This document shows, piece by piece, positions 15,205-56,467 of a stretch of DNA of 64,000 nucleotides; within the stretch, counting starts at the first letter, position 1; each line of letters begins with the position of its first letter. Under the pieces are notes generated by a model. The model saw only the letters and a program-made list of their open reading frames with translations. It did no database searches and had not been told where the DNA came from. The translations under genes were made by a program, and so were the position numbers. Origin of the DNA: Escherichia coli (GTDB taxonomy: Bacteria > Pseudomonadota > Gammaproteobacteria > Enterobacterales > Enterobacteriaceae); the NCBI RefSeq assembly GCF_003334815.1, contig NZ_QOWO01000002.1, one strand, 5' to 3'.

Positions 15205-15302
<98 letters not shown>

Positions 15303-16255: not shown

Positions 16256-16346
16256 ATGTAGGCCGGATAAGGCGTCCCCGCCGCATCCGGCACAGGCACC
16301 GTGCTGATGTCTGATGCGACGCTGGCGCGTCTTATCAGACCTACAA
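16256..16346. repeat. REP/BIME element pair
   Basis: GTAGGCCGGATAAGGCGTCCCCGCCGCATCCGGCAC ... GATGCGACGCTGGCGCGTCTTATCAGACCTAC. Confidence 0.8.
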
Positions 16347-29466: not shown

Positions 29467-30366
29467 TTACGCAGAGAAAAAGGCGATGAGGATCGGCACT
29501 AACAGGCTAAGAATAAAACCGTGAACAATTGCCGCCGGGACCATATCCAGCCCGCCAGTACGTTGAAGAACGGGCAGGGTGAAATCCATTGATGTGGCAC
29601 CGCATAAGCCCAGTGCAGTAGAGCGGCTGCGGCGAATCAGCCCAGGGATCAACATAATAGCAATCAGTTCACGGGCCAGATCATTAAAAAACGCCGCGCT
29701 CCCGATTACCGGACCAAAAGATTCGGTCAATAAAATACCGGAAAGAGAATACCAGCCGAAACCGGAGGCCATTGCCAGCGCGGTATTGATGGGGAGATCA
29801 AGAATAAAGGCGTTAATTAAACCACCAATTAATGAACTGACAACCACCACCACGGCGACAATCATTCCCCGGCGATTAAGGACAATCTGCTTTAAGGTCA
29901 TGCCATTATTGCGCAACTGAATACCAACGAGGAAAAGTAGCAAAATTAACGTGTATTCACTGGCTTCGGTCGCGTGTTGTAAGAAAGCCAGTCCACTTAG
30001 ACCAATGGCAAAACCAATCACTACTACGCCGCACAGTTTTAGCGACTCCAGCGCCATCGCAATACGCGACGGGAGTTTTTCTTGCTGATGGTGGTTGCGC
30101 CACGGCAGGCCTCGCTCCAGCCACATCAGGGCGGCAATATTACACAGTAAAATAACGGTAATACTGACGGCAGAATAATGCAGAATCGCCAACAGGTTAC
30201 TGGCGAGGTTATCGAGAAACGCCAGACTGATACCCATAAAAAAGAGAATAAGGTAAACCATCCAGCTTAATAGCTGATTAATAACTTTTAACGCAGCTTG
30301 TTGGCGAAGCGGAATGAGGTAACCCACAATCAGGGGAACCAGAATGATTAACAGCCCAGAAAACAT
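29467..30366 (-). CDS. lysO: Lysine exporter LysO (YbjE)
   Basis: 299-aa membrane ORF from ATG 30366 (MFSGLLIILVPLIVGYL...); ORF-track start 30414 is an extension. Confidence 0.9.
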   Translation of the reverse strand: MFSGLLIILVPLIVGYLIPLRQQAALKVINQLLSWMVYLILFFMGISLAFLDNLASNLLAILHYSAVSITVILLCNIAALMWLERGLPWRNHHQQEKLPSRIAMALESLKLCGVVVIGFAIGLSGLAFLQHATEASEYTLILLLFLVGIQLRNNGMTLKQIVLNRRGMIVAVVVVVSSLIGGLINAFILDLPINTALAMASGFGWYSLSGILLTESFGPVIGSAAFFNDLARELIAIMLIPGLIRRSRSTALGLCGATSMDFTLPVLQRTGGLDMVPAAIVHGFILSLLVPILIAFFSA

Positions 30367-30539
30367 GAAAACCCAGTCCTTGCAAAGATGAAGTCGAAAT
30401 GCGCGATGACACACTACTGAAAGCGGAAGGACGAGTAAAGTTGCAATTAAAAGGAAATGTTATGCATAAGGAGCAGTAGAGTATTCGTTTTCATTTAAAG
30501 ATATTCTTGCGCTTTAATTACAAACTGCACCGATGTTGG

Positions 30540-30760
30540 TGGCGTCAAAATCGCCGAGGCGTTCCCTGAAGGCCGGGGCAGCCCACATGGATGTGGGCTG
30601 AGGGCGCGTTTTACAGGGATGTTACCTCGCGCCCGACCCGGTAGCCGTAAGGGATAAGTCGAGGGCACCGCGCAGCGGCGATTTTGTTCGCCAGAGCCCG
30701 GGGGTGCAGGGGGCGGCGGCGATTGGCCGCCCCCTGCGCGCTCCTTGCGCCAGTGGCAAT
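30540..30760. other. GC-rich hairpin-dense element in lysO-aqpZ intergenic region (possible structured leader or boxC-like repeat)
   Basis: Perfect 12-bp inverted repeat GCAGGGGGCGGC/GCCGCCCCCTGC (30706-30737), palindrome CAGCCCACAT/ATGTGGGCTG (30579-30600), stem GGGCGCG/CGCGCCC (30602-30634); sharply higher GC than flanks. Confidence 0.4.
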
Positions 30761-30820
30761 ATGTTGCTTAGCTCATGAAAGGAGCGCAACAAGATGATGA
30801 ATCAACATATAACAACATCT

Positions 30821-30850
30821 TAAAAAAAGGCCTGACATTACGCCAGGCCT
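30821..30850 (-). terminator. Intrinsic terminator of aqpZ
   Basis: On minus strand hairpin AGGCCTGGCG...CAGGCCT followed by TTTTTTTA. Confidence 0.65.
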
Positions 30851-30860
30851 TCTGCGTTAA

Positions 30861-31556
30861 TTAATCACGCTTTTCCAGCAGGGTCCGGTAAATCAGACCA
30901 CCGATAATGCCGCCGACAATTGGCACCACCCAGAAGAACCACAGTTGTTCTAATGCCCAGCCGCCCTGGAAGATAGCAACCGCGGTGCTGCGCGCCGGGT
31001 TAACAGAAGTGTTAGTCACCGGAATACTAATTAAGTGAATCAGGGTTAAGGCCAGACCAATAGCGATCGGCGCAAAACCTGCCGGCGCGAATTTGTCGGT
31101 TGCGCCGTGGATCACCAACAGGAAACCTGCACTCAATACCAGTTCAACTACCAGCGCGGAAAGCATGGAATAACCGCCTGGTGAATGCTCGCCATAACCG
31201 TTAGAAGCAAAACCGCTGGCTGCCGCGTCAAAACCCGTTTTACCACTGGCAATTAAATACAGCAGCGCCGCTGCAACAATACCGCCGACAACCTGGGCAA
31301 TTACGTAGCCAACGACTTCTTTTGCCGGAAAACGTCCGCCAGCCCATAAACCAATAGTGACCGCCGGGTTAAAATGACCACCAGAAATATGACCAACAGC
31401 AAAGGCCATCGTCAGAACGGTCAGACCGAACGCCAACGCCACGCCGGCAAAACCAATGCCTAATTCCGGGAAGCCTGCGGCCAGTACAGCACTACCACAG
31501 CCACCAAAAACAAGCCAGAAAGTACCAAAACATTCAGCTGCTAATTTTCTGAACAT
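30861..31556 (-). CDS. aqpZ: Aquaporin Z
   Basis: 231-aa ORF from ATG 31556 ([19 protein letters not shown]...); two NPA motifs ([14 protein letters not shown]). Confidence 0.95.
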
Positions 31557-41261: not shown

Positions 41262-41349
41262 GTTCACTGCCGTACAGGCAGCTTAGAAATTCACAGGTAA
41301 CATACTCCACCCGCCCACCATGTTCACTGCCGTACAGACAGATAAAATG
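41262..41349 (+). CRISPR. Orphan type I-F CRISPR remnant: 2 repeats, 1 spacer, no cas genes
   Basis: 28-nt repeat GTTCACTGCCGTACAGGCAGCTTAGAAA (41262-41289), 32-nt spacer TTCACAGGTAACATACTCCACCCGCCCACCAT (41290-41321), degenerate terminal repeat GTTCACTGCCGTACAGACAGATAAAATG (41322-41349). Confidence 0.8.
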
Positions 41350-41392: not shown

Positions 41393-41480
41393 TGGCGGTG
41401 AGGGGGGGATTCGAACCCCCGATACGTTGCCGTATACACACTTTCCAGGCGTGCTCCTTCAGCCACTCGGACACCTCACC
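41393..41480 (-). tRNA. serW: tRNA-Ser (anticodon GGA)
   Basis: Reverse complement GGTGAGGTGTCCGAGTGGCTGAAGGAGCACGCCTGGAAAGTGTGTATACGGCAACGTATCGGGGGTTCGAATCCCCCCCTCACCGCCA; long variable arm, encoded CCA. Confidence 0.95.
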
Positions 41481-56229: not shown

Positions 56230-56249
56230 TACCCAATTTTTCTGAATCT

Positions 56250-56277
56250 AAAAAGCGCCTGCGGGCGCTTTTTTTGT
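56250..56277 (+). terminator. Intrinsic terminator of serS
   Basis: Hairpin AGCGCCTGCGGGCGCT followed by TTTTTTTG. Confidence 0.75.
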
Positions 56278-56283
56278 CTCCCT

Positions 56284-56297
56284 TTGATACCGAACAA
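56284..56297 (+). promoter_or_regulatory. FNR binding site of the dmsABC promoter
   Basis: TTGATACCGAACAA matches TTGAT-N4-ATCAA at 9/10 positions upstream of anaerobically expressed dmsA. Confidence 0.55.
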
Positions 56298-56467
56298 TAA
56301 TTACTCCTCACTTACACGTAATACTACTTTCGAGTGAAAATCTACCTATCTCTTTGATTTTCAAATTATTCGATGTATACAAGCCTATATAGCGAACTGC
56401 TATAGAAATAATTACACAATACGGTTTGTTACTGGAATCAATCGTGAGCAAGCTTGAGTGAGCCATT

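Follow-up and report, generated by a model that had tools for sequence, protein, structure and literature searches.

The GC-rich hairpin block between lysO and aqpZ of Escherichia coli is the dispersed repeat TRIP1a, identical to the replication risk sequence RRS-lysO

The GC-rich, hairpin-dense block that lies between lysO and aqpZ of Escherichia coli is TRIP1a, the lysO-proximal copy of the E. coli repeat TRIP1, and is identical to the element described elsewhere as RRS-lysO; as such, it is already known. The block was analysed in a window of 64,000 nucleotides (contig NZ_QOWO01000002.1 of assembly GCF_003334815.1), meaning the whole stretch of DNA to which the coordinates given here refer unless another record is named. 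Having a name, a literature and an experimentally supported function at the level of DNA, the block is not a new riboregulator of lysO, and the explanation as a whole, namely that TRIP1a/RRS-lysO acts as DNA and not as a regulator of lysO, is considered very probable.

Location, extent and folding of the block

The gene order hcp-lysO-aqpZ-ybjD, taken from the open reading frames of the window, is that of the K-12 locus. The spacer between the two minus-strand genes, the lysO coding region being bounded at 30366 and the aqpZ stop lying at 30861, covers 30367-30860, the 494 bp given in an earlier note made from the sequence alone. As that note described, the block is GC-rich in an AT-rich spacer (65% GC versus 37% in the remainder), and the three inverted repeats are found at the positions claimed, with perfect stems of 12 bp (30706-30717/30726-30737) and 10 bp (30579-30588/30591-30600) and a third stem of 7 bp (30602-30608/30628-30634). 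The extent proposed there, 30540-30760, proved too small: comparison of paralogous and orthologous copies places the repeat at about 30525-30790, 266 bp, which adds an outer 11-bp stem (30546-30556/30676-30686) and a third hairpin (30738-30746/30779-30787). These boundaries derive from the alignment of copies from other loci and, given the ORF coordinates, agree with the published position of TRIP1a, a 266-bp unit placed 158 bp upstream of the start of ybjE (lysO) and 70 bp downstream of the aqpZ stop (PMC10888264), that is, exactly 30525-30790. Folded as RNA, the plus strand reaches a minimum free energy of -143.4 kcal/mol (z = -5.1; 0 of 200 shuffles equally stable) and the minus strand -131.1 kcal/mol (z = -4.8 versus shuffles). 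The parts of the unit are listed in Table 1, where the end points of the RRS core are an estimate accurate to a few bases, based on the 222-bp definition in PMC10592627 and PMC10287960.

Table 1. Parts of the TRIP1a unit, and RNA or repeat matches elsewhere in the window
Feature	Position	Strand	Evidence or remark
Whole TRIP1a repeat unit, 266 bp	30525-30790	+	plus strand is the G-rich 'RRS-G4' strand
RRS core, ~222 bp, near-identical to the inverted dusC copy	30536-30757	+	alignment with K-12 TRIP1c
Domain 1, multi-branch, TwoAYGGAY-like; long closing stem around two hairpins	30545-30687	+	RF01731 match, covariance model R1, covariation
Closing stem, 5' arm CAAAATCGCCG, partner CGGCGATTTTG at 30676-30686	30546-30556	+	sequence, minimum free energy fold, consensus helix 1
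Hairpin 1, CAGCCCACAT/ATGTGGGCTG, apical ACAUGGAUGU at 30585-30594	30579-30600	+	inverted-repeat search; covariation
Hairpin 2, GGGCGCG...CGCGCCC, apical ACAGGGAUGU at 30613-30622	30602-30634	+	inverted-repeat search; covariation
Published G-quadruplex-forming motif GGGGGTGCAGGGGGCGGCGG	30700-30719	+	exact match; G4Hunter 1.84
Domain 2, 12-bp perfect hairpin GCAGGGGGCGGC/GCCGCCCCCTGC	30706-30737	+	inverted-repeat search
Domain 3, hairpin GCGCTCCTT/AAGGAGCGC around a variable ~32-nt loop	30738-30787	+	inverted-repeat search; helix 12 covariation
RybB	3486-3564	-	Rfam match
STnc130	56243-56377	-	Rfam match
naRNA4, REP-derived	16261-16341	+	Rfam match
ES036	15239-15281	+	Rfam match

Identity with TRIP1a and RRS-lysO

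The identification rests on the match of the window to the lysO-aqpZ region of K-12, on boundaries equal to the published position, on the inverted copy at dusC, on the deletion in the putP-efeU copy and on the G-quadruplex (G4) motif. The TRIP1 repeats of E. coli K-12 were named in the intergenic-repeat survey of Rudd 1999 and are described in Li et al. 2024 (PMC10888264), where the other members are TRIP1b (putP, internally deleted in K-12), TRIP1c (dusC/yohI), TRIP1d (alx-sstT) and TRIP1e, and where TRIP1 is viewed as a recombination substrate and a possible non-coding RNA. The comparison with TRIP1e was dropped, the candidate locus (L033) appearing to be the dusC copy (its flanking ORF of 315 aa has the size of DusC); K-12 has ybaQ between ybaP and copA.

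The term RRS, 'replication risk sequence', comes from the Cox and Goodman laboratories (Pham et al. 2023, PMC10287960; Pham et al. 2024, PMC10592627; Kusi-Appauh et al. 2026, PMC13308219) and denotes the 222-bp core of the lysO and dusC copies, which are inverted relative to each other and lie each ~650 kb from dif. According to these three papers, RRS stop Pol I, II and IV in vitro and also hinder Pol III in vivo; wherever they are placed, they yield lagging-strand gaps of up to 2 kb bound by RecA and SSB; deletion of both needs a compensating amplification; at least one copy is conditionally essential; and RRS affect supercoiling genome-wide. Both RRS carry the G4 motif GGGGGTGCAGGGGGCGGCGG on the lagging-strand template (PMC10592627), the complementary strand also provokes gaps, less often (2026 preprint, PMC13308219), and the lysO and dusC copies are conserved in position across enterobacteria (PMC10287960). 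The TRIP1 paper mentions neither RRS nor other genera, and Rfam and TwoAYGGAY are absent from it as well as from the main RRS paper.

Copies in E. coli and in other genomes

The search for other copies, which the earlier note had put forward as the means of separating a dispersed repeat from a regulatory RNA specific to lysO, clearly favoured the dispersed repeat, with copies at unrelated loci and in both orientations relative to the neighbouring genes. By blastn, each of the 5426 complete E. coli genomes contains the block, with 3 places per genome as the median and 10 as the maximum; the 3 places in K-12, lying at 914.9 kb, 1081 kb and 2229 kb, are lysO-aqpZ, putP-efeU, which has the published internal deletion, and the dusC side, and some E. 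coli strains carry an additional copy in the alx-sstT spacer. The K-12 dusC copy, TRIP1c, begins 43-50 bp downstream of dusC (dusC/yohP); it occupies 2229122-2229388 on the opposite strand, in the other replichore, and is in the alignment nearly identical to the TRIP1a of the window across ~220 bp. The block was also found in Klebsiella and Citrobacter records; a chromosome of Klebsiella pneumoniae that is filed as a plasmid has about 13 places, and Enterobacter sp. ENT03 has 7. In a pattern scan of one genome per species, the element was recovered from Escherichia spp., Klebsiella, Enterobacter, Leclercia, Pluralibacter, Pseudescherichia, Pseudocitrobacter, Atlantibacter and Silvania; the lysO and dusC copies hold fixed positions across the Escherichia species.

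All E. coli copies are singlets. In the doublets of other genera, the partner, detected with a covariance model of domain 1, is a diverged second copy, inverted and 70-290 nt from the first. In Enterobacter sp. ENT03, the doublet at L021:7992-8634 (also at L019, L020 and L022-L025) consists of diverged units, one on the minus and one on the plus strand, with ~130 nt between their 5' ends, and similar TRIP1/TwoAYGGAY-type doublets were seen at Leclercia, Pseudescherichia, Pseudocitrobacter and Atlantibacter loci. In K. pneumoniae strain 176, near-identical tandem copies (L005:2552-2849 and 2989-3286), 437 bp apart, occupy a convergent spacer between a mechanosensitive-channel gene and pcaC.

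The matches of the pattern scan beyond Enterobacteriaceae (Clostridia, CPR, alpha-proteobacteria and others) were discarded as chance, being of low GC or coding-like and giving no TwoAYGGAY hit at the Rfam thresholds. Sequence of the enterobacterial TRIP1 type was encountered in two Firmicutes assemblies, 'Bacillus' (L073, Bacillus sp. EB106-08-02-XG196; a 583-nt contig with coverage 0.7) and 'Sporobacter' (L064, a Sporobacter termitidis MAG), and its presence there is most likely contamination. Among 50,697 phage records, 0 copies were found, the only viral match being one IMG/VR contig, and carriage by plasmids was likewise rejected, the 'plasmid' matches being chromosomes or chromosomal fragments filed as plasmids and all typed as non-mobilisable. 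A 42-kb 'plasmid' of E. coli Z1323HEC0475 (L002, NZ_CP148327.1) holds the chromosomal segment macA-ybjX-ybjD-aqpZ-lysO-hcp-hcr-poxB; its aqpZ-lysO spacer measures 321 bp, so that about 170 bp of TRIP1a are absent.

The alx-sstT spacer was considered as a filled versus empty site from which the ends of the element and a target duplication might be read; the comparison is not clean, K-12 having a different repeat-like sequence there. In place of TRIP1d, the K-12 spacer (L011:2047-2444, compared with L009:2408-3022) holds ~150 bp of unrelated sequence of the CCCTCTCCC...GGGTGAGGG type, which resembles another GC-rich repeat, and the spacer seems to be a hot spot that receives different repeats in different strains rather than a simple filled or empty site. 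In some RefSeq records a 100-aa 'hypothetical protein' is annotated over TRIP1d (L010:2516-2818); given the covarying stems, this ORF is probably spurious.

A conserved fold across the family

Sixty copies from about ten genera were aligned and a consensus structure was derived with RNAalifold. The consensus has 50 pairs, in 21 of which both sides have changed, a number reached in 0 of 500 shuffles; paired cells amount to 98.2% in the observed alignment versus 89.8% in column shuffles and about 40% when the partners are slid by 1-3 columns. Since AAAATCGC, ATGGATG and GCGATTTT were fixed by the search pattern, their invariance is meaningless, and that of the closing stem, partly fixed in the same way, carries no evidence either; neither the covarying stems nor the CA.GGA.G of loop 2 had been part of that selection. 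In domain 1, which the covariance model built here (R1) matches at 161.8 bits, hairpin 1 (helix 5) shows compensatory changes in 5 of 8 pairs and hairpin 2 shows them in helices 6-8, its loop keeping the GGA and the flanking CA and G invariant in the 60 copies, though these lie outside the search pattern. In domain 2, where the G-rich 5' arm overlaps the G4 motif, helices 9-11 covary between genera and the 5' arm is in every case the G-rich one, and in domain 3, helix 12 has compensatory changes in three pairs (GCGCTCC/GGAGCGC versus ACGTTCAC/GTGAACG). All stems covary over the 60 copies, and the fold is under selection.

The plus strand folds more stably than the minus strand in 59 of the 60 copies, with a mean advantage of 11.8 kcal/mol. 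On the pairs predicted for the plus strand, G:T wobbles stand against A:C mismatches at 165 versus 12; if the pairs predicted from the two strands are pooled, which makes for a fairer count, the figures are 179 versus 93.

Relation to TwoAYGGAY

In the Rfam and covariance search that the earlier note had proposed, covariation is strong, as described above, and the sole Rfam match is TwoAYGGAY (RF01731), on the plus strand and below threshold. The match of the window, at 30545-30684, scores 30.6 bits (E = 0.05), below the gathering score of 43, and a different E. coli copy scores 33.1 bits; homologues from Pluralibacter gergoviae, which align with the window copy over the whole unit, exceed the threshold with 51.9 and 46.3 bits. 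TwoAYGGAY is defined by two AYGGAY loops closed by a stem P1 that is often very long (Weinberg et al. 2010, PMC2864571). The long stem of the P1 type is present in the window, the outer 11 bp being extended by further pairs; loop 1, AUGGAU, fits AYGGAY, and in loop 2, AGGGAU, the second base is a purine; other copies have AUGGAU or ACGGAC as loop 2. The original TwoAYGGAY alignment includes multi-copy elements of Psychromonas ingrahamii with ACAUGGAUGU and ACAGGGACGU loops; the motif was reported in gamma-proteobacteria, Clostridiales and the human gut, and was graded by its authors as only 'probably' an RNA (PMC2864571).

Replication strand, G-quadruplex and proposed mechanism

The GC skew of the whole window is +0.029, i.e., the plus strand has leading-strand composition, and the gene order is that of the K-12 right replichore; together, these make the plus strand the lagging-strand template, in agreement with the RRS papers. 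In the explanation favoured here, when the helicase unwinds this template, the G-rich plus strand folds into a G-quadruplex at 30700-30719 and presumably also into a very stable three-domain hairpin structure; the lagging-strand polymerase stops, disengages and restarts downstream, and the resulting gap of up to 2 kb is filled by SSB and RecA. In the proposal of the RRS authors, the transient gap would act at the edge of the Ter macrodomain as a valve for topological relief. Within this explanation, the polymerase block, the gaps, the conditional essentiality and the effects on supercoiling are the work of others, and the identity, copy number, boundaries, strand and conserved fold were established here. 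The hairpin fold would add to the polymerase block beside the G4, and the relief valve is likewise a presumed function; the gaps provoked from the complementary strand (PMC13308219) fit a contribution of the hairpins, since both strands can form them.

The family as a whole sets bounds to this mechanism. The canonical G3+N1-7 quadruplex pattern was abandoned in favour of G4Hunter, as it matches almost no copy and misses even the published RRS G4. At this site, about 48 of 62 copies reach a G4Hunter score of 1.4 or more and about 12 stay below 1.2, so that a high G4 propensity is usual, not universal. Across genera, the G-rich strand is not biased towards the lagging-strand template (24 versus 25 loci, judged by the GC skew of the flanks, a noisy proxy), and the positions of the E. 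coli putP and alx copies, set against K-12 replichore geometry, would put their G-rich strand on the leading-strand template. On these grounds, the triggering of gaps may be confined to the two conserved Escherichia copies and may not be what maintains the family. That the results on gaps, essentiality and topology all come from one group of laboratories also counts against the mechanism.

Alternative explanations

A selfish, non-autonomous mobile repeat of the MITE- or REPIN-like kind, which landed harmlessly downstream of aqpZ, whose hairpins serve a mobilisation enzyme and which has no function for the host, is an unlikely account of the block, even if the family bears several marks of proliferation. 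Copy number differs among strains and genera; the copies lie mostly beside gene 3' ends (of 47 copies placed by a heuristic ORF call, 27 sit between convergent genes and 3 between divergent genes); head-to-head doublets occur at about 20 of 67 loci, and a stretch of about 470-650 bp of such a doublet recurs at 7 loci of Enterobacter sp. ENT03 with 90-94% identity; in K. pneumoniae, two copies stand in tandem. Against these stand the lysO and dusC copies, which are fixed in position in Escherichia species and, according to the literature, in enterobacteria, and the published result that deletion of both is tolerated only with compensation; in addition, neither terminal inverted repeats nor a target duplication could be found, no transposase partner came to light, and no copy lies on phages or on genuine mobilisable plasmids. 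At L100, two inverted copies stand 1 kb apart, the sole pair so widely spaced; the 168-aa ORF that they enclose, flanked by entD- and fepA-like genes, was rejected as an autonomous partner because it shows no obvious transposase character. A selfish origin is compatible with later domestication, and rivals the main explanation only in the form that denies a function.

It must be regarded as quite improbable that the block works chiefly as a structured non-coding RNA of the TwoAYGGAY kind, which could capture a CsrA dimer, either as a sponge or in cis from within neighbouring mRNAs. In domain 1, read as plus-strand RNA, the adjacent apical ACAUGGAUGU and ACAGGGAUGU fit the reported binding consensus of CsrA/RsmE, A/U-C-A-N-G-G-A-N-G-U/A (Dubey 2005; Schubert 2007), and the reported range of TwoAYGGAY (gamma-proteobacteria, Clostridiales, human gut) fits lineages that have CsrA. 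The only Rfam match in the region, on the plus strand, with Pluralibacter homologues that pass the gathering score, points the same way, as do the strong covariation, the GGA of loop 2, invariant without selection by the search pattern, and the excess of G:T over A:C on the plus strand; folded single-strand DNA, however, would likewise give covariation and tolerance of G:T. At lysO-aqpZ, moreover, the plus strand is antisense to both neighbours, and where the neighbouring genes are co-directional, the unit runs the same way as the genes in 7 cases across the family and the opposite way in 10, with no orientation bias. The independent sRNA that the earlier note had offered as an option finds no support: a consensus scan of 30300-30900 showed no promoter or terminator, neither signal is conserved with the unit, the flanks differ between copies, and the K-12 annotation has no feature at the block. 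In the published E. coli CsrA CLIP-seq gene table, dusC and ybjE are marked 'No' in all four yes/no columns, assumed to include the CLIP calls, and the published CLIP tables give no support for CsrA binding in vivo.

Very improbable is a structured 5' leader of lysO, or a 3' UTR or terminator region of aqpZ, acting in cis on the minus strand: the location would suit it, since the unit lies 158 bp upstream of lysO and in the path of any read-through, about 31 bp beyond the terminator hairpin of aqpZ (30827-30851), but the TRIP1 unit adjoins unrelated genes (putP/efeU, dusC/yohP, alx/sstT and many more) in both orientations and Rfam returns no riboswitch or leader family, only the subthreshold TwoAYGGAY, for which reasons a leader or riboswitch is rejected; besides, a 158-bp AT-rich stretch with room for a promoter is left between the unit and lysO, and the minus strand folds worse in 59 of 60 copies.

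Among the options originally offered for the block (leader, sRNA or boxC-type dispersed repeat), the multi-locus copies thus uphold the dispersed repeat, though not one of the boxC type, and the leader and the sRNA find no support. The boxC element reportedly (Blattner 1997) has a short unit of ~56 bp and about 30 copies in K-12, a description that sets it apart from a unit of 266 bp with 3 places in that genome. The earlier exclusion of a REP element was correct: the fold is a three-domain multi-branch, and the REP-derived Rfam model naRNA4 is silent here and matches true REPs elsewhere in the window.

Other features of the window

The remaining Rfam matches of Table 1 are unrelated to TRIP1a. 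A single CRISPR-DR4 repeat above the Rfam threshold was noticed at 41262-41289 (plus strand), near a tRNA at 41396-41480 (minus strand) and with no surrounding array in the Rfam table; it is presumably the known type I-F CRISPR remnant found near clpA-infA-serW in strains that lack those cas genes. Among the chance matches of the pattern scan, one in an Erysipelotrichaceae MAG (L032:3219-3910) carries three tandem matches to the cow-rumen-1 RNA (RF02946), ~300 nt apart.

Implications

The identification of the block as TRIP1a/RRS-lysO links literatures that do not cite one another, namely those on TRIP1, RRS and TwoAYGGAY, and brings data from the family to bear on the RRS model: every stem covaries, the G4 propensity is incompletely conserved, no strand bias is seen by the proxy used, and in other genera doublets multiply. 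These data suggest the hairpin fold, beside the G4, as a candidate for the polymerase block, and they raise the question of whether the RRS function is ancestral or an exaptation specific to Escherichia. It is tentatively proposed, as a possibility somewhat short of even, that TRIP1/RRS is the Escherichia branch of TwoAYGGAY (RF01731), a proliferating multi-domain repeat with a head-to-head doublet, comparable to a REPIN, as its replicating form; that the position-fixed RRS of E. coli are domesticated singlets; and that selection across genera acts not on the G4 alone but on the single-strand fold as a whole, both invariant GGA loops included, a fold that some protein recognises as single-strand DNA or as RNA. 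If this were true, the orphan TwoAYGGAY motif would gain its first experimentally characterised members, and RRS would be an exapted selfish element.

Comparison with known systems

Between the TRIP1 of PMC10888264 and the block of the window there is no sequence-level difference, and the paralogues at putP-efeU, dusC-yohP and alx-sstT are the same. The RRS papers treat RRS as a pair of conserved elements, to which some species add further copies, and do not discuss a covarying three-domain fold, a link to TwoAYGGAY or doublets. New relative to the TRIP1 and RRS papers are, accordingly, the TwoAYGGAY architecture of the 5' domain, the covariation of all stems and the head-to-head doublets in other genera.

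TwoAYGGAY elements share with the block the long closing stem, two hairpins with GGA loops joined by AG, and multiple copies within genomes; they differ in that the enterobacterial unit has two more 3' hairpins beyond the Rfam model. With the CsrA-sequestering RNAs of the CsrB/RsmZ type, which have several GGA motifs in hairpin loops and bind CsrA in vivo, the block may be compared for its two consensus-like GGA loops, against which stand the 'No' entries of dusC and ybjE in the CLIP-seq gene table. REP, BIME and REPIN elements are, like the TRIP1 family, GC-rich structured intergenic repeats which lie mostly at the 3' ends of genes and form inverted doublets that multiply within genomes, and BIME-2 elements have a topological role, as is proposed for a block of the RRS type. 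REP units are imperfect palindromes of ~35-40 bp, clustered, present in hundreds of copies and tied to RAYT transposases, whereas the TRIP1 unit has 266 bp, is multi-branched, occurs in 1-13 copies and has no known enzyme. Finally, the pilE-associated G-quadruplex of Neisseria gonorrhoeae, cited by the RRS authors as the only analogue, likewise forms on one strand and gives rise to a programmed single-strand discontinuity; it differs in driving pilin antigenic variation at a single locus, and is not a dispersed, structured repeat of 266 bp.
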